Source: Escherichia phage F13. Taken from it: a stretch of 64,000 bases of DNA. Shown here in pieces: positions 11,447-61,807 of this stretch (the first letter of the stretch is position 1; every line of letters starts with the position of its first letter). Made by a program: the position numbers and the translations under genes. The stretch lies in the sequence record OP745617. One strand, given 5' to 3'. The notes beneath the pieces were generated by a model, which had not been told where the DNA came from, made no database searches, and saw only the letters and a list, made by a program, of their open reading frames with translations.

Positions 11447-12907
11447 ATGAATAAAATATTAACACATAATTGGAAATTCATGTACCAGTTGAATCCTGCT
11501 TTAAAAGAAGTCTGGAAGACAAAAGCGCGATACAAAGTAATATACGGCGGTCGTGCATCTTCCAAATCGCACGATGCCGCTGGTTTTGCTATTTATTTGG
11601 CGGCAAACTTCAAATTAAAATTCCTTTGCGTTCGACAATTCCAGAACAAAATTTCTGAATCTGTATATACTCTATTAAAAGACAAAATAGAGATTTCTGA
11701 TTTCAAAGATGAGTTCAATTTATTAAAGAACTCTATTGAACATAAAAGAACTAAATCTGAATTTCTATTTTACGGTATCGCACGTAACGTTGATGAAATT
11801 AAATCAACAGAAGGTGTTGACGTCCTTTGGCTGGAAGAAGCGCACGCGCTTACTGAAGAACAGTGGGACATTATTGAGCCGACAATCCGTAAAGAAGGGT
11901 CCGAAATATGGATCATCTTTAACCCCGATGAAGAGGCCGATTTTGTCTACCAAAACTTTGTTATGCGACCGCCGAAGAATGCCATTGTTAAAAAGATAAA
12001 CTGGCAAGACAATCCATTTTTGTCGCAAACGATGCTGGACGTTATTGCAGGCATGTACGAGCGCGACCCGAAAAAGGCAGAGCACGTTTATGGCGGCGTG
12101 CCGAAGACTGGCGGCGATAAATCTGTAATCAACCGCGCATTCGTTAAGGCCGCGCTTAATCTCCACAAACACCCTACGCTGGGATGGAGTTTGTCAGGGT
12201 CTAACCGTATAGGCTTTGACGTAGCGGACGATGGCGACGACCTTAACGCCACTGCATTCGTTACAGGAAACGTATTGCGCGGCATCAAGACATGGGAAGG
12301 TCTGGAAGATGAATTGTTAAAATCGGCAAGCGGAGTTTGGAAAGATGCGCTTACATTTGGCGCTTCTATAACTTATGACGCCATCGGTGTCGGCGCTTTT
12401 GCTGGTTCAAAATTTGATGAACTGAACGAGTATGCAATACATGAAAATCCATCATTTCCAAGAATCGAATTTAATGCGTTCAATGCGCAAGGGTCTGTTG
12501 ATGATCCTGATGACGTTTTTCTTGAATTACCACACGTTGAAATACTCAATAAAGACCATTTCGCAAACATAAAAGCGCAAAAGTGGACTGAAATTGCAGA
12601 GAGATTCAGAAAGACATACGAATATGCAACTGGGCAAGCCGTATATCCGACTGATGAGTTGATTTCAATCGACACCGATGGCATACCAGAACTTGGAATT
12701 CCAGCTTGGACTACTGAAGAGATTGAGACGTTTCTTTTTGAGATGTCAGCGCCGCGCAAAGATACGTCTGTTCTTGGCAAGTTCAAAGTTGAATCTAAAA
12801 AGGATATGGCAAAGCGTGGAGTCAAATCACCTAACAAAGCGGACGCGGCAATCATGGCATTAATGAAACCAATCGTTGCAGCATCCGGCTTCTTCTCTAA
12901 CCTTTAA
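11447..12907 (+). CDS. terL: terminase large subunit (alternative start 11480)
   Basis: Walker A YKVIYGGRASSKSH, Walker B-like VDVLWLEEAH, size 486 aa and position at the head of the morphogenesis module. Confidence 0.85.
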   Translation: MNKILTHNWKFMYQLNPALKEVWKTKARYKVIYGGRASSKSHDAAGFAIYLAANFKLKFLCVRQFQNKISESVYTLLKDKIEISDFKDEFNLLKNSIEHKRTKSEFLFYGIARNVDEIKSTEGVDVLWLEEAHALTEEQWDIIEPTIRKEGSEIWIIFNPDEEADFVYQNFVMRPPKNAIVKKINWQDNPFLSQTMLDVIAGMYERDPKKAEHVYGGVPKTGGDKSVINRAFVKAALNLHKHPTLGWSLSGSNRIGFDVADDGDDLNATAFVTGNVLRGIKTWEGLEDELLKSASGVWKDALTFGASITYDAIGVGAFAGSKFDELNEYAIHENPSFPRIEFNAFNAQGSVDDPDDVFLELPHVEILNKDHFANIKAQKWTEIAERFRKTYEYATGQAVYPTDELISIDTDGIPELGIPAWTTEEIETFLFEMSAPRKDTSVLGKFKVESKKDMAKRGVKSPNKADAAIMALMKPIVAASGFFSNL

Positions 12908-12910
12908 CAA

Positions 12911-13150
12911 TCAAAGCATTCCGTGCTGAAGGTCTAGTTTTCTTGCAGCAAATGACCTGGCACGGAATCGCTTACCCGCCCTTACTGCCTGCCGAATCTT
13001 CTTTTGCATACACTTACGGTCAAAATCGTTGCGGTCAACGGCTTCGAGTAAATCCCGACGCAAAGCACCTAGTGTCGCCTTTTCGGATAATTCTACGCCC
13101 AGCGCGGCTGCAACGTCTTTCAAAACATCGAGTTCGGTTAACGTTCTCAT
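12911..13150 (-). CDS. hypothetical protein (79 aa, basic C-terminus)
   Basis: Minus-strand ORF coupled (ATGA) to the 13147-13563 gene, wedged between terL and portal. Confidence 0.4.
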   Translation of the reverse strand: MRTLTELDVLKDVAAALGVELSEKATLGALRRDLLEAVDRNDFDRKCMQKKIRQAVRAGKRFRARSFAARKLDLQHGML

Positions 13151-39358: not shown

Positions 39359-40003
39359 ATGATTAATGCAAACGTAATATCTAAAGGGACCGGATGCAGC
39401 ATGGATGTTGCTGAAAAATGGGTCGACCCCTTCAAGCAGGCTTGTGAGCACTACGGAATCAAAAGCAAGAATGCCATCGCGGCGTTGCTTGCAAACGTAG
39501 GAGTAGAAACAGGCAGTATGAAGACTTTTGTGGAGAACTTGAATTACTCCGCTCAAGGTCTTGCGAATACATGGCCTAGCCGTTACAGCGCCAGCGGTCG
39601 TTTCGGTGGCGCACCAAACTCCTTGGCATTGTCTATTGCCCGTAAACCAATGGAAATCGCCAATAATACATATGCAAACCGAATGGGCAATGGTTCGGTA
39701 GCATCTGGCGACGGTTGGAAGTACCGTGGCCGTGGTGCCATTCAGCTGACTGGAAAGGCTAACTATGCAGAGTATTCAAAGCAATCAGGGTATGATGCAT
39801 TGAATAACCCTGACATTTTGACTGAGCCGAAACACATCGCTGACAGCGCGGCATGGTTCTTCAAGAACAGCGGTTGCATCCCACTTGCTGATGCTGGCGC
39901 ATTTGATTCGACTGTGAAGCGGATTAACGGGGCCGCGCCGAATACGGCTAACCATGGAGATTTGCGACGGAAGCGTTACAAGGATGCACTAGCAGTTATG
40001 TAA
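39359..40003 (+). CDS. endolysin, glycoside hydrolase family 19 (chitinase-like)
   Basis: AAGGTGA RBS; GVETGSMKTF and YRGRGAIQLTGKANYAEY match GH19 catalytic-region signatures. Confidence 0.8.
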   Translation: MINANVISKGTGCSMDVAEKWVDPFKQACEHYGIKSKNAIAALLANVGVETGSMKTFVENLNYSAQGLANTWPSRYSASGRFGGAPNSLALSIARKPMEIANNTYANRMGNGSVASGDGWKYRGRGAIQLTGKANYAEYSKQSGYDALNNPDILTEPKHIADSAAWFFKNSGCIPLADAGAFDSTVKRINGAAPNTANHGDLRRKRYKDALAVM

Positions 40004-42542: not shown

Positions 42543-43058
42543 TTATTTTTCCTTTGATGCATTGAATTGATCGATTTTTATTTTAGCCTGATTATAAGTA
42601 TCAATCAAGCTATTAACTTTCTCTTTTAATCGATTTGTTTCTGCGGCGAACTGAACAAGAAATCTGACATCCTCTTCTGATAGTCCACAGTTTCCTTCTG
42701 GGATAGAGAGGCGTCCAGTGGTCGCAGAGTCGGGCACACTCCTGAGTAACTCACGGGAGCAGCTGAGTTGCTCGCGCAACTTGACATTCCCAGACTTGTA
42801 ACGAGCAATAGTGTCATCAGCAACCAGTTGCGCTTCCTGGCGACCCTTCTCATATGCCGATGCCGATTCAACCTGTAAAGTTGCAATTTGCTCTTCGAGT
42901 GCATTTATCTTGTCCTTACGCTCATTAAGCGATGTCAGATATTGATTATCCTTGGCCAGTGATGCGTTGGTTTGCTGCAGGTCTTCAACGTATGATCCAG
43001 CGGCAAACGCGCCAACAAGGGCCAGAATCTTCAGGAGCGGTACAATTCTTTCTATCAT
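42543..43058 (-). CDS. i-spanin (Rz-like)
   Basis: N-terminal TM helix (LLKILALVGAFAAGSYV) then coiled-coil; C-terminal half resembles lambda Rz (…GNVKLREQLSCSRELLRSV…RLSIPEGNCGLSEEDVRFL…). Confidence 0.55.
   Translation of the reverse strand: MIERIVPLLKILALVGAFAAGSYVEDLQQTNASLAKDNQYLTSLNERKDKINALEEQIATLQVESASAYEKGRQEAQLVADDTIARYKSGNVKLREQLSCSRELLRSVPDSATTGRLSIPEGNCGLSEEDVRFLVQFAAETNRLKEKVNSLIDTYNQAKIKIDQFNASKEK
42626..42853 (-). CDS. embedded o-spanin (Rz1-like lipoprotein) in alternate frame of the i-spanin gene
   Basis: Out-of-frame ORF inside the Rz-like gene: MRRVARKRNWLLMTLLLVTSLGMSSC… (signal peptide, lipobox-like Cys, Pro-rich mature part); start could also be 42817. Confidence 0.4.
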   Translation of the reverse strand: MRRVARKRNWLLMTLLLVTSLGMSSCASNSAAPVSYSGVCPTLRPLDASLSQKETVDYQKRMSDFLFSSPQKQID

Positions 43059-43115
43059 GATGCACCAGATAAATAAAAGGCCGCCAATCGGCAGCCTTGT
43101 TGATTTGATTGTCGA

Positions 43116-43976
43116 TTAAAACTCTTCTGCGTCGGTCGGAGTTTCATTGACAGGGCCAGCGGCACCGCTTGCTTCTTCCTGCTTGCTGCGGTCAATGTTA
43201 ACGTTGCCGCCAACTACGTCGTTGTGGAATGCCTTGGCGACTTCGTACAGACCTTTGTCCTGCACCAGACCTTCCAGCTCAAACTTCAGAACTGACCATG
43301 TATTGCCGTCTTTGGACTGGGATGCAGTGCCCATGCGAACGATGTTCATAAAGGTCGGCGGCGTTTTCAGACCCTGCGGAGTCTGAACTTTCTTCTGCTG
43401 CAGAGCTGTCATCAGCATGCGAGACGGCTTGATCATGGAAGAAGTCAGAGACAGCATTGCGCTACCAAATTCACCAGTTTCTTCGTTCAACAGAATTACG
43501 AAGTGGTTACGTGTATCTGCGTAGTAAGGCGATTTCTTCTCGTGCACCTTGCCGTTTTCGTCCGGCACAAACACTTTACCGTTGATCTCAACAGCGCGCC
43601 CTGCCGCGACTTCTGCATCAACGTGCTCTTTGGTGAATTCACCTTTAAAGCCTTTATCGTCGGACTCGCGACCGCCCCAAAGGATGAAGGTGCGTTTGAA
43701 TGCACAAGGGATGATCTGCACGCCTTTCTTGCCGTCATACAACTCACCAGTGACGGTGTTGTAAAGCATGCCAGCTTTTGCGCCAGGAACGTGTTTCGGA
43801 TCATCTTCGTCGACCATAGGTGACATCTTCTGCAGGACGACGATAAAAGGAATGGCATACGCATCGGCATCGGCACCTTCAAAACCAGCGCCAAAATCGG
43901 TCATGTCGACAAAATCGGCCATAGCGGACATCTGGGTGTTTTTCACTGCAACTTCGGTGGTTTCTTTCTTAGACAT
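43116..43976 (-). CDS. putative ssDNA-binding/recombination protein
   Basis: 286 aa ending in an acidic tail with terminal Phe (…NETPTDAEEF), as in T7 gp2.5 and bacterial SSB; no further motif. Confidence 0.35.
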   Translation of the reverse strand: MSKKETTEVAVKNTQMSAMADFVDMTDFGAGFEGADADAYAIPFIVVLQKMSPMVDEDDPKHVPGAKAGMLYNTVTGELYDGKKGVQIIPCAFKRTFILWGGRESDDKGFKGEFTKEHVDAEVAAGRAVEINGKVFVPDENGKVHEKKSPYYADTRNHFVILLNEETGEFGSAMLSLTSSMIKPSRMLMTALQQKKVQTPQGLKTPPTFMNIVRMGTASQSKDGNTWSVLKFELEGLVQDKGLYEVAKAFHNDVVGGNVNIDRSKQEEASGAAGPVNETPTDAEEF

Positions 43977-44035
43977 TTGATATTTTCCTATAGTATCAAG
44001 TTTCGTGGCAACCTGATTTCAAGATAAAGGTTAAA

Positions 44036-44593
44036 TTACTTTTTGCTTTTAGGCAAGGTTATTTTAGCTTCTTTGTATTCAAAAACGCTAATATCTTCAC
44101 TAACTGGATTGCCTGCTTCCAGCTGTTCTTTTACAAATGACTTCAGTGTAGCAGAATGAACGCCTTGTTTCAATGTGGCTTCAACGCCATCTTCACGCAG
44201 CGCGGCAACAATCTCTTGCGCCTGTTCGATTTCTTCGCGACCGAACTCAGCCGTGACGCTGGACTTGATCAAGCCGCCGTAACCGTTGTTGACAAGCCAA
44301 TCGAAAACTTTTAATTCGTTTTCTTTCTTGATTGAAGCATTCACCTTGGACTCGACCTTGATTTTGGTCTTGTCCTCAAGCTTGATTTCAGACACACCAA
44401 GCTCATCCATTACGCCAGGAAGCAAAACAGTTTTGATTTCACTGATGCGCTGCTTTTGCATATCAGCTTCATCTTCAAGCTCTGTCAAAGCTTCTTGACG
44501 TTCTGCAAGTTCAGATACTAAGCGCGCAAGGCGCTCTTGAATGCTCTCAGGAGCGACCTGCGGCAAATCATCTTCCCAATTAATATTGCTCAT
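44036..44593 (-). CDS. hypothetical replication/recombination-associated protein (185 aa, coiled-coil N-terminus)
   Basis: ORF in the replication module. Confidence 0.4.
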   Translation of the reverse strand: MSNINWEDDLPQVAPESIQERLARLVSELAERQEALTELEDEADMQKQRISEIKTVLLPGVMDELGVSEIKLEDKTKIKVESKVNASIKKENELKVFDWLVNNGYGGLIKSSVTAEFGREEIEQAQEIVAALREDGVEATLKQGVHSATLKSFVKEQLEAGNPVSEDISVFEYKEAKITLPKSKK

Positions 44594-57744: not shown

Positions 57745-58827
57745 ATGGCTAGTTTAAGAGAAGAAGCAAAAATAATTGAAGAGTTTTTAACAGAACTCCA
57801 GAGAGGCATCCCAGAAGATGAGCGCGTCATGACGGTGTTTGCTCCTGAAGCAACGGTGCAGACTGACGAGCGCGGAAAGAAGATTAACAGCAGCTTCTGG
57901 CCTAAGCCTTGGAAGTTGGGCAAGCCGCTCATGCAGCACCAAAACGGCTATGCTTGCATCAGTTCAATGCGTAAGTCTCCCAACCCAAAGACGGGTGAGA
58001 TGCGATACTGGCGTACAGAGTCGGCCTTTGGTCACGGTATGGCGATGATGGTCGACGACATCGGTCACGGTAAAGGGTCCAAAGGCGATTTAGATTTGGA
58101 ATTCTTTTTTGAGCGACTGAAGCCGACTGTCATCGTCGAGACTTCACCGAACAACCACCAGCTTTGGTACTTCTTTAAAGAACCGATTGACCATCTTATT
58201 CAGTTCAAAGCGTTCCTTGGGTCTTTCGTTAACATGGTACTCAAGAAGGGCGGCGACAACACGATTAAAGACGTAACGCGCGTGGGCCGTGTTCCTGGGT
58301 GCATCAATAACAAGCGTGTGACTCACGACGGCCCCTATAAATATGTCGATGAGAACGGCGACCCGTTCCGCTGCCGACTTGTCCATGCAGACTACTCCTT
58401 GCGCTACACCATCGAAGACATTTGTCACGCATTTGGCTTTCACGTCGTCATGCCGCAAAAGCGTGAGATTCAAATTGACGTCGATGAATACAAGTATGAT
58501 GCCGTTTGGTATAAAATAGCCCAGCAGATTCTGGCGCGCAACAAGATGGGTGAAGGGTCTGATGGCGACGTCATCGAGAATATGTCAGGCAAGTGCCGCA
58601 TAATCTGTCCTTGGGGTGAAGAGCACACCAACGGCGACCCGTATGGCGCGTACTTTCGCGGCCCTATCCCTGGTGCAGAACATGAATTTGTGTTCGGTTG
58701 CGCCCACGACTGTCACCGGAAAGGGGAAGGCAAGAAAGGTTGGACTGCTTTTGTTGAAGCAATCGTCATGCCTTATATTGAGAATCAACTTGACATGATA
58801 AATCGTCGTGCAGGTGGCATAAAATAG
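57745..58827 (+). CDS. DNA primase, archaeo-eukaryotic primase (AEP/prim-pol) type with C-terminal zinc ribbon
   Basis: MAMMVDDIG, SPNNHQLWYFF and RVPGCIN resemble AEP motifs; C-terminal CRIICPW…CAHDCH; AAGGAAAG RBS. Confidence 0.55.
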   Translation: MASLREEAKIIEEFLTELQRGIPEDERVMTVFAPEATVQTDERGKKINSSFWPKPWKLGKPLMQHQNGYACISSMRKSPNPKTGEMRYWRTESAFGHGMAMMVDDIGHGKGSKGDLDLEFFFERLKPTVIVETSPNNHQLWYFFKEPIDHLIQFKAFLGSFVNMVLKKGGDNTIKDVTRVGRVPGCINNKRVTHDGPYKYVDENGDPFRCRLVHADYSLRYTIEDICHAFGFHVVMPQKREIQIDVDEYKYDAVWYKIAQQILARNKMGEGSDGDVIENMSGKCRIICPWGEEHTNGDPYGAYFRGPIPGAEHEFVFGCAHDCHRKGEGKKGWTAFVEAIVMPYIENQLDMINRRAGGIK

Positions 58828-60136: not shown

Positions 60137-61807
60137 ATGTCAATTAATAATGACAATCTTCCAGAGGATACAGGTGATGAATTTGGTGCAATCTTTGACG
60201 AAATTCAAGATGCAGGCGTTTCGGAAGAAATGCAGGCAGCAGAGCAGCAAGGCACCAGAGCTAAAATCAGCCTTCAACATAAAGCCGTTGAAAAAGATTC
60301 AGAGCGCATGGAATGCTACGGTGAAGAAGACTTGGTTGAAAGAGCACGCTTGCTCGCCTCACTTCAGGTAATCAAGTTCCCTCACTACAAGCCGACCAAA
60401 GATGACTTCGTTCTACAGGCAGACCGGACGAGTGACATGAACCGTTATGCGGTTTTCGACGCGTTGTTTGATAAGGGAAGTGGCGTTGTTCCATTCCCTC
60501 ACAAAGATACTTTTCGTGGGCGCTTAGTCGACCATCGCGGCGAAACATTCACCGACCGTACTTTGGAAGTCACAGAGATAGTTGCCGCTGTCGACGCAGC
60601 AGGATTGTCCAACCCAAACTCACGTCAGGTCGCTCAATCCTATAAGGAATGGGCCATGCGTTATCAGCGCGACGACCTGATGGACTTCTTCTACAAGAAG
60701 CTGCCTGAATGGGACGGTACTGCGCGCATCGAGAAATACCTTATCGAGCTATTCCGACCGTTCGATACAGAGTTAAACCGACAAATCGGTGTGTATTTTT
60801 GGCTATCGCTCTACAACCGCCTGACCAACCCTGGCTGTCAAGCGCCAATTTCTATCGCGCTCATCGGCGGCCAGAACGCAGGGAAGAGTTATTTTAGCAA
60901 GCTGCTTTGCGAAGCTATTATGAACGACCGCCACGCAACACCGATTCCGTTGAACTTAGCCGCGCAAAACTTCAACCCGTTCTTGCGAGCTATTACGGGT
61001 CGCTCAATTATCGCGAACGTTGGCGAGATGACAGGCTTTAAAAAGGCCGACATCGAAAACATGAAAGCATTCCTGACTAAGACGGAAGATGACCTGGACT
61101 TCAAATTTGAAGATACGCAGGTTAAACCACGCCAGTGGATTGCGATAATGGACGGCAACGAATACGCAGGTATGCAGCGTGATGACACGGGCAACCGTCG
61201 TGTGTATCCTATCTTTGTTGGCCAACTCGCCGACAAGGACGGGCAACCGAACTGGTCGAAAGACTTCCAAGCTGACCTTTCCACTTTGAAAGAAGACGTT
61301 TGGCAATTGATGGCTGAGTGCGCTGCTTGGATGGAGAAGCACGGCGAAGCAGGTTACAACGCGTTTGTTGGTGAAACATCTCGCATGCTCACTGAGTTTA
61401 GTAAGAACGAAATGGAACGTGCACGCGGCGTTATTCGTGATGAGATGGTTGACAACGACCTTGTTGAAGTCGTCATTACCGCGCCTTATGACCGACATCA
61501 CAGCGGACGCTGGCACATAACCAGTGGTGCTATTGCTATGGGATTCAGAGCGAAGTGCGGCAAGTCGCCTTTCTCTCGTACCCTTGCGCCGCACATGTCG
61601 AAGCTTGGTTTTGAGCCTGCAACCTATCGCAACCAGCGCGGTTACTTTACGCCGCTGATTAAGAATGAAGCAGGAGAATACATTTCTGATTTGATGACCA
61701 TCTTAGCGTATCTTATCCGCGATGAGTCTGACCCTGAAGATATTGAATTCTTGAAGAAGGTTATTGAGCGTAAACGTTCTTTGGGAAGAGATAAGGATGA
61801 ATTCTGA
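60137..61807 (+). CDS. VirE/D5-like primase-associated SF3 helicase
   Basis: AGGAGG RBS; P-loop ISIALIGGQNAGKSYFSKL in the C-terminal half; 556 aa. Confidence 0.55.
   Translation: MSINNDNLPEDTGDEFGAIFDEIQDAGVSEEMQAAEQQGTRAKISLQHKAVEKDSERMECYGEEDLVERARLLASLQVIKFPHYKPTKDDFVLQADRTSDMNRYAVFDALFDKGSGVVPFPHKDTFRGRLVDHRGETFTDRTLEVTEIVAAVDAAGLSNPNSRQVAQSYKEWAMRYQRDDLMDFFYKKLPEWDGTARIEKYLIELFRPFDTELNRQIGVYFWLSLYNRLTNPGCQAPISIALIGGQNAGKSYFSKLLCEAIMNDRHATPIPLNLAAQNFNPFLRAITGRSIIANVGEMTGFKKADIENMKAFLTKTEDDLDFKFEDTQVKPRQWIAIMDGNEYAGMQRDDTGNRRVYPIFVGQLADKDGQPNWSKDFQADLSTLKEDVWQLMAECAAWMEKHGEAGYNAFVGETSRMLTEFSKNEMERARGVIRDEMVDNDLVEVVITAPYDRHHSGRWHITSGAIAMGFRAKCGKSPFSRTLAPHMSKLGFEPATYRNQRGYFTPLIKNEAGEYISDLMTILAYLIRDESDPEDIEFLKKVIERKRSLGRDKDEF

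Follow-up and report, generated by a model that had tools for sequence, protein, structure and literature searches.

The gene at positions 43116..43976 (minus strand) of the stretch of Escherichia phage F13 DNA analyzed here (record OP745617; 64,000 nucleotides, referred to below as the window, in whose numbering coordinates are given unless another record is named) codes for a protein of 286 amino acids (aa), hereafter called gp34-like. This protein is the best candidate for the SSB (a protein that binds single-stranded DNA, ssDNA) or annealing protein that these phages otherwise appear to lack. With a rough probability of 0.5, we propose that it is an ssDNA-handling protein of replication and recombination, i.e., a functional analogue of gp2.5 of phage T7 or gp32 of phage T4 whose fold is unrelated to those of known SSBs. 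The proposal draws on a conserved C-terminal tail of the type borne by SSBs, on the tail of a helicase encoded by the same phage and on the company that the gene keeps in phage genomes.

The open reading frame (ORF) begins with ATG, fills the interval together with its stop codon and ends in ...GAAGPVNETPTDAEEF (...TPTDAEEF), and the plus-strand translation of the same interval is interrupted by many stops. An earlier note, made from the letters of this DNA, described the protein as defined only by its acidic tail and as not recognisable over the rest of its length. Both descriptions have to be abandoned, as the protein matches the Pfam family PF23977 (Pam3_Gp34; E = 4.2e-86, profile positions 3-234 of 235) and phrog_2402 (E = 3.6e-105, profile positions 12-291 of 292) over practically their full lengths. 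Both are families of unknown function. PF23977 was matched by all 124 diverse relatives scanned, and the eight divergent gp34-like proteins submitted to a PHROG scan all fell in phrog_2402, with no annotated sister family. Escherichia phages ECML-117 and TH35 encode the identical hypothetical protein (100%), and the counterpart in phage kaset shares 99.7% identity with it; by sequence, the window can thus be assigned to an ECML-117-like Wifcevirus, a distant relative of the Pseudomonas PB1-like Pbunavirus. The family has a great many members: 4,774 clusters at 50% identity with E ≤ 1e-3, including 926 with E ≤ 1e-30, were gathered in an exhaustive profile search, and the gene was found in 509 GenBank phage records, 364 of which are Pseudomonas phages. 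Nearly all listed homologs are named “hypothetical protein,” the exceptions being “Phage protein” here and there and one entry that is evidently mis-annotated as a holin. Literature searches on Pam3 gp34, PF23977, DUF7307, phrog_2402, Pbunavirus together with SSB, and SSB-tail mimicry found no paper on the family, a scan of the protein against NCBIfam was without match, and sequence searches of the PDB gave no meaningful match, whether they started from the protein alone or from the profile of its family.

The acidic C-terminal tail and terminal aromatic residue to which the earlier note drew attention are confirmed by the homologs. All 119 full-length homologs sharing 49-100% identity with the protein end in F, within a motif [DE]-A-[DE]-x-F that stands behind a variable low-complexity linker. 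In a diverse set of 143 full-length representatives clustered at 50% identity, the last residue is F in 107, F, Y or W in 115 and aromatic or hydrophobic in 130; D and E dominate positions -4 to -8, and the last 15 residues have a mean net charge of -3.1. A terminal Phe is kept at about 28% identity (Acinetobacter pB23, ...NGGEF; Pseudomonas Jack, ...KPVF) and closes 50 of the 55 distinct gp34-like tails collected from IMG/VR loci. No conserved last residue was seen in the DnaE polymerase, epsilon-exonuclease, SNF2 helicase, ligase or PolA of those same loci. The tail encoded in the window is moderately acidic, with four D/E and no K/R among its last 15 residues and seven D/E among its last 26, and among the 207 frames in the window that run from stop to stop over at least 80 aa, it is the only one to combine an aromatic terminus with four or more acidic residues and none that is basic in the final 12. 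Linker and tip together span aa 261-286 (43119..43196, minus strand) and the tip D-A-E-E-F-COOH lies at 43119..43133 (minus strand). AlphaFold2 (AF2) gives residues 268-286 a predicted local distance difference test (pLDDT) value below 50, consistent with a disordered tail.

Part of the family carries tips of the bacterial type. Ends of the form [IVLMA]-P-[FYM] occur in 24 of the 143 diverse representatives, with at least two acidic residues shortly before [IVLMA]PF in 17, and tips such as ...ADDDDIPF, ...DDDEEIPF, ...ENDDIPF and ...HDDEVPF are of the SSB C-terminal (SSB-Ct) type. DDDIPF is described as the motif of the bacterial SSB C terminus in PMC5872125 and PMC5928155. Chance origin of the gp34-like tail is ruled out by the conservation data. 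The ...DMEYF end of the ligase was considered as a part of the same tail system and rejected, since the terminal F is not kept in its homologs. With its disordered linker, acidic tip, near-invariant Phe and canonical SSB-Ct ends in 17-24 of the 143 representatives, the tail upholds the note's suggestion of a partner-recruitment motif of the SSB/gp2.5 type, and we take it for a true recruitment motif of SSB type, borne by a protein that is associated with the replisome.

In the lineage of the window, the [DE]A[DE]xF tip is unlike the DDDIPF of the host and resembles the tail of the phage's own helicase. This VapE/D5-like helicase of superfamily 3 (SF3) type (60137..61807, plus strand; 556 aa; Pfam PF05272, E = 1.6e-28) ends in ...GRDKDEF. 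Among its homologs from Pbunavirus, Bcepfunavirus and uncultured relatives (39-48% identity), 15 of 16 complete sequences have a terminal F, preceded in most variants by acidic residues (...LGEDF, ...EGDGF, ...EHEGF, ...DPEAF, ...DNGGF). In T7, the SSB gp2.5 and the helicase-primase gp4 both end in similar acidic, Phe-terminated tails; here, the corresponding two proteins would be gp34-like and the VapE-like helicase. The tail of gp2.5 was reported to interact with the T7 polymerase and with the primase-helicase (PMC5686142). The gp34-like tail class of the window's lineage, [x]A[DE]xF, co-occurs with DnaE: 33 of 33 loci with DnaE within 10 kb carry such a tail or a closely similar F-terminated one. 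The xPF tail is found in none of these 33 loci, and the visible polymerase of xPF loci is PolA, a correlation that is confounded with phylogeny. That a VapE-like helicase and a gp34-like protein appear to share a tail in a DnaE-based phage is, in our analysis, the strongest contextual support for the SSB-like reading.

The gp34-like gene resides inside a minus-strand replication operon. Upstream of it lie the gp33-like gene, a small ORF, genes for an SNF2 helicase, a 140-aa protein, a DnaE polymerase, a DnaQ-like exonuclease, PNKP, ThyX and a Dda/RecD-like helicase; downstream come an Rz-like spanin gene, MazG and ligase, and the opposite strand carries a RepB-like primase and the VapE-like helicase. 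The DnaE-type polymerase (965 aa; Pfam DNA_pol3_alpha, finger and PHP) and the RNase T/DnaQ-like exonuclease (180 aa; RNase_T), together at 46857..50296 (minus strand), are, by analogy, candidates for the proteins on which the tails dock. The genome of phage kaset, although fully annotated, has no SSB or annealase among its annotations, and no SSB is annotated in the stretch of Pbunavirus Pa193 (28-66.6 kb) where its replication genes lie; in other respects both phages encode a full replisome. The 360-aa protein encoded at 57745..58827 (plus strand), whose annotation in relatives is “DNA primase,” has a RepB-type (archaeo-eukaryotic) primase domain (PF16793), and the replisome would therefore join the DnaE polymerase with an archaeo-eukaryotic primase and a VapE-like SF3 helicase.

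The closest companion of the gene is the gp33-like gene (44036..44593, minus strand; 185 aa; Pfam PF23984, DUF7307; phrog_2378). Of 77 IMG/VR loci, 74 have it upstream of gp34-like and in the same orientation, the remaining three being cut at a contig end, and it occurs in 453 phage records, nearly the same set of phages as the 509 with gp34-like. The pairing of the two genes is obligate. The AF2 model of the gp33-like protein (pLDDT 78.5) comprises a 48-residue helix (aa 18-65) and a small alpha/beta domain. A Gam/Ku-like or orf157-like identity was considered for this protein and dropped, as it had no structural match in the PDB and nothing below a Foldseek E-value of 0.38. PF23984 was its sole Pfam match, with none to PF07352 (Mu Gam) or PF05565 (Sfi21 orf157-like), and a profile search of the PDB returned coiled-coil noise only. 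Its C terminus is basic, with a terminal Lys in 36 of 52 distinct tails and ...LPKSKK in the window, opposite to the acidic end of gp34-like. The SNF2-family helicase (44928..46451, minus strand; Pfam SNF2-rel_dom and Helicase_C) is syntenic with the gp33/gp34 pair, and a homolog of it is located within 10 kb in 61 of the 77 loci. The order SNF2, small ORF, gp33-like, gp34-like recurs in YuA-like, PaMx11-like, Rhizobium and Vibrio phages with differing polymerases, and in several of these loci a RecD-like helicase gene comes next after gp34-like.

The AF2 model of gp34-like, built with a 78-sequence alignment, has a mean pLDDT of 82.9 and a predicted template modeling score of 0.75, with most of residues 40-260 above 90. 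A low-confidence N-terminal segment (aa 1-38; 43863..43976, minus strand; pLDDT 33-58 over residues 1-40) bears, according to the alignment columns, the short conserved motif D-x-G-x-G-F-E-G-x-D, in which G31 is invariant and E33 is 97% conserved. It is followed by a predicted folded core (aa 39-260; 43197..43862, minus strand) of alpha/beta type with three helices and long beta-hairpins; the predicted secondary-structure order at residues 86-124 is strand-strand-helix. The core has conserved aromatic residues (F44, F93, W100, F110, Y159, F209, W227) and conserved basic residues (R95, R103, R156, K183, K184, K/R186, K196, K248), which are compatible with nucleic-acid binding without amounting to proof of it.

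Several results weigh against an SSB-like role. The core is roughly neutral (isoelectric point 7.2) and not basic, and the DAEEF tail is weakly acidic compared with that of gp2.5. A Foldseek search of the PDB gave no match at E ≤ 1e-3 and no template modeling (TM)-score above 0.29. Alignments by hhalign of the family profiles with T7 gp2.5, T4 gp32, N4 gp45, phiC31 gp3 and a 35-sequence alignment of the gp3 family all had a probability below 1%, and the Pfam scan of the 124 diverse members at E ≤ 0.1 yielded noise only besides PF23977. In particular, none of these members matched the SSB (PF00436), gp32, gp2.5/DUF2815 (PF10991), DUF669 (PF05037) or annealase families; the OB (oligonucleotide/oligosaccharide-binding) domain of PF00436 was missing at this threshold from the query as from the relatives. 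RecT/Redbeta, Erf, Rad52, Sak3 and Sak4 appeared neither in that scan nor among the top 50 listed Foldseek matches in the PDB. A conserved Cys/His cluster of the gp32/gp3 zinc-site type is likewise absent from the column conservation, with only H158 and a partly conserved C91 present. Judged by the sequence and model comparisons that were run, gp34-like belongs to no known SSB or annealase family.

The structure prediction that had been proposed as a check for an OB fold was carried out on the AF2 model and detected none; because the best PDB TM-score was 0.29 and no match reached E ≤ 1e-3, a canonical OB fold is taken as not detected in the modeled core. Below the threshold, 11 chains from seven entries among the top 30 PDB matches are OB-fold SSB or RPA proteins. 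The bacterial SSB structures 4dam, 3tqy, 3afp and 6bhw are among the non-significant matches (E = 0.03-0.3, TM-scores 0.22-0.29), and the match of highest probability (0.69, with a non-significant E-value) is the recombination directionality factor (RDF) gp3 of phage phiC31 (9teh_I; TM-score 0.23-0.29). The predicted viral structures of BFVD gave 32 matches at E ≤ 1e-3, nearly all of them to uncharacterised phage proteins of similar size, with a few distant ones named SSB, DNA-binding protein or RDF. Such names among the Foldseek and BFVD matches are hints only. A Whirly/PUR/PC4-like fold, considered because a pattern in which a pair of short strands is followed by a long hairpin and then a helix occurs twice (residues 129-194 and 197-255), was dropped; the single Foldseek match of this kind was WHY2 (4kop; E = 0.37, TM-score 0.22).

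Also unfavorable is the presence, in some phages, of a separate SSB beside the gene. In Vibrio phage K228, the order is gp33-like, gp34-like (...ADDIPAEM), an HNH-type endonuclease and a PHROG-annotated SSB (...DFDDGIPF), and in a marine IMG/VR clade a small SSB-like gene (...D[EK][MV]PF) directly follows gp34-like (...[AST]IPF). With an SSB one or two genes downstream, gp34-like is therefore not the sole SSB in these phages. As a side observation, the end of the K228 gp34-like protein echoes the DDGIPF tip of K228's own SSB. The same region of K228 (OZ196485, 6345..14639) carries, besides the gp33/gp34 pair and the canonical SSB, genes for PolA, a dATP triphosphohydrolase and an adenylosuccinate synthetase of PurZ-like type, hallmarks of a 2-aminoadenine (Z) genome. 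The metagenomic contigs consulted for members with a DDIPF tip are 1.5-1.7 kb long and uninformative for context.

The gene orders of K228 and of the marine clade resemble the known module order [Gam or orf157-like]-[annealase]-[SSB] (PMC8093625), and for this reason the leading alternative, which we consider rather unlikely, is that gp34-like is a recombination mediator or single-strand annealing protein that forms, with gp33-like and SNF2, a module for recombination or for the remodelling of forks. In that case, the SSB-like tail of gp34-like would be an entry into the protein network of SSB or a means of competing with SSB for partners. Such a role would suit the obligate gp33-like pairing, the persistence of the SNF2 link across different polymerase types, the lack of any other annotated annealase in Wifcevirus and the annotation of T7 gp2.5 as both SSB and annealase. 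It fits poorly with the lack of similarity to RecT/Redbeta, Erf, Rad52, Sak3 and Sak4 in the Pfam and Foldseek comparisons described above, and the gp33-like protein has no Gam/Ku-like or other known fold. Moreover, annealases are described as binding SSB tails and not as carrying them. A dual role like that of gp2.5 would reconcile the SSB reading of gp34-like with the separate SSBs found nearby.

The most conserved polar residues of the core (D154, T155, H158, S179, Q181, K183 and S185) also tell against DNA binding as its evident function, as they look no less like a catalytic or ligand site than like a surface that binds DNA. An improbable alternative takes them as such, with D154-T-R-x-H158 and S179-x-Q-x-K183-x-S185 forming the active site of a DNA-metabolism enzyme, e.g., a nuclease or end-processing factor, tethered to the replisome by its tail. 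These residues are 90-97% conserved among members sharing 25-47% identity, and tailed enzymes have precedents in T7 gp4, with its acidic Phe tail, and in the VapE-like helicase of this very phage; yet no match to any enzyme family emerged from Pfam, NCBIfam or the PDB, and the conservation profile holds no acidic metal-binding cluster of nuclease type. Just as improbable is a mimic of the SSB tail that binds no DNA and acts as an adaptor or decoy, capturing or blocking host readers of SSB tails (e.g., exonuclease I, RecQ, PriA, chi or defence sensors) and so redirecting or protecting phage replication: the core without detectable SSB-like fold and the ...DDDIPF-type tips of many members, including phages that already encode an SSB with the same type of tip, speak for it, but the window lineage has, in place of the host DDDIPF, a [DE]A[DE]xF tip that resembles the tail of its own helicase, the synteny of the family across widely differing phages is with core replication genes and not with early host-takeover genes, and a strongly conserved folded core of 220 residues exceeds the needs of a decoy peptide.

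If gp34-like is indeed an ssDNA-handling protein, it could operate as follows. The core (aa 39-260), through its conserved aromatic and basic residues, would bind ssDNA at replication forks and in recombination intermediates. The disordered linker would present the acidic tip, which is conserved and SSB-Ct-like, to a partner, whose basic or hydrophobic pocket would receive the terminal Phe carboxylate. In the DnaE lineage (Wifcevirus and Pbunavirus), the tail probably docks on the phage polymerase and/or on the SNF2 helicase, at a site that the VapE-like helicase would also use through its own Phe-terminated end, by analogy with T7 gp4, gp2.5 and gp5. In the lineages with a ...DDIPF tip, the partners are probably host or phage proteins that read SSB tails. 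Finally, gp34-like would work with the upstream coiled-coil gp33-like protein, with which it is consistently paired, perhaps through a contact made by the conserved N-terminal motif. A bolder version of the proposal can be offered only tentatively, as a possibility that we hold to be doubtful: PF23977 as a whole would be a new major class of phage ssDNA-binding proteins, with a non-OB fold that has no solved relative, a universal SSB tip, a coiled-coil partner always at hand and usually an SNF2 helicase; it would supply the “missing SSB” of the PB1-like phages used in therapy and of thousands of uncultured ones and, with a docking tail held in common with the replicative VapE-like helicase in the DnaE lineage, would have arrived independently at a T7-style exchange of tails.

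Some features around the gene concern its expression. An intrinsic-terminator-like hairpin (43077..43098, minus strand) with a 9-bp stem, six GC pairs and a following T-rich run stands 17 nt past the gp34-like stop; terminator-like sites are no commoner in this region than in shuffled sequences, and the hairpin rests on its position and stem quality. A weak sigma-70 promoter-like site, TTGCCA-18-GAAAAT (43982..44011, minus strand; 9 of 12 consensus matches), falls within the 59 nt that separate the gp33-like gene from gp34-like. Because the hairpin follows the stop and the promoter-like site precedes the gene, gp34-like may be a separately tuned expression unit of its own within the operon, a weak suggestion.

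Other genes of the window deserve mention. An Rz-like i-spanin gene (phrog_1327; 42543..43058, minus strand) directly follows gp34-like inside the replication operon, and an ORF embedded in it out of frame (42626..42904, minus strand) has a lipobox-like signal (...LLLVTSLGMSSCAS). The endolysin gene (39359..40003) is distant from this embedded pair of Rz/Rz1 type. Between the polymerase/exonuclease and PNKP/ThyX genes, 50351..51682 (minus strand) encodes a 227-aa short-chain dehydrogenase of FabG-like type and a 183-aa protein with weak likeness to glyoxalase, an unusual cargo for a replication operon.

Should the family, with its roughly 4,800 clusters at 50% identity, bind ssDNA, the short list of phage SSB types would gain a new structural class, and a gap in the annotation of a very large group of phages would be closed. 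Pbunavirus, a carrier of the gene, is a genus widely used for personalised phage therapy (PMC11990801). If the proposal is true, the C-terminal tip of SSB would prove to be a portable signal for docking, one that has been joined in evolution to folds of separate origin, and the finding would bear on the wiring of phage replisomes and on the discovery of recombineering tools. Bacterial defence systems are reported to sense phage SSBs, and a portable tip would bear on them as well. The Phe-terminated tails common to gp34-like and the VapE-like helicase offer a testable parallel, in a DnaE-based replisome, to gp2.5, gp4 and gp5 of T7.

Among the known systems, bacterial SSBs (PF00436) share with the gp34-like family a disordered linker followed by an acidic tip with terminal Phe, in canonical form in the 17-24 representatives mentioned above; gp34-like differs from them in having no PF00436 OB domain and, in the window, no Ile-Pro in its DAEEF tip. 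T4 gp32 is comparable in size (301 aa against 286) and in its three-part layout, with a folded core between a short motif at the N terminus and an acidic C terminus, which in gp32 recruits replication proteins; SSBs of the gp2.5 type also match this layout, and the SSB architectures used for this comparison are described in PMC5686142 and PMC11795197. With gp32, however, the hhalign probability is 0.2%, and gp34-like is without its His/Cys3 zinc site.

The likeness to phiC31 gp3 and its close homolog TG1 gp25 (PF18897) is of another kind. Experiments have shown that the TG1 RDF (gp25) is a phage SSB whose OB fold is like that of gp32 (PMC11795197), and it illustrates a phage SSB long missed by annotation. 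gp3 provides the Foldseek match of top probability, and the BFVD matches include an actinophage RDF and SSB. On the other hand, TM-scores with this group are 0.23-0.35 with non-significant E-values, the hhalign probability with the family profile is below 1%, the gp34-like family has no zinc site and phiC31 gp3 has no acidic Phe-terminated tail.

SSBs of the DUF669/N4 type, such as the HK620 SSB with its NDYPPF tail, are another case of divergent phage SSBs, recognised by remote homology only. As a precedent, the ...NDYPPF tail of the HK620 SSB is required to stimulate the neighboring annealase (PMC5928155), and SSBs of this type sit in recombination modules behind Gam-like or orf157-like genes (PMC8093625). 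By contrast with these proteins, gp34-like gave no PF05037 match in the 124 members and a negative hhalign result with N4 gp45. Separately, the N terminus of N4 SSB gp45 (12322..13119 of phage N4), ...NLGGGFGAKESDIYLATLKV, resembles the N-terminal motif of gp34-like, ...DFGAGFEGADADAYAIPFIVV. The likeness is short (GGGFG...DIY vs. GAGFEG...DAY) and was not aligned by hhalign; it may be a coincidence or a shared short motif.

T7 gp2.5 and the DUF2815 (PF10991) SSBs, e.g., ORF6 of Enterobacter phage Enc34, have in common with gp34-like a disordered, acidic and Phe-terminated tail on a protein of the replication module, and SSBs of Enc34 type are also found in modules with helicase and polymerase genes (PMC5686142). 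SSBs of this class have a variant OB fold in which a long helix comes directly after strand beta-2. The hhalign probability with gp2.5 is 0.1%, and neither 1JE5 nor the Enc34 structures are among the listed Foldseek matches. Compared with these SSBs, gp34-like is larger and is distinguished by its conserved N-terminal motif and by the constant presence of a coiled-coil partner gene.

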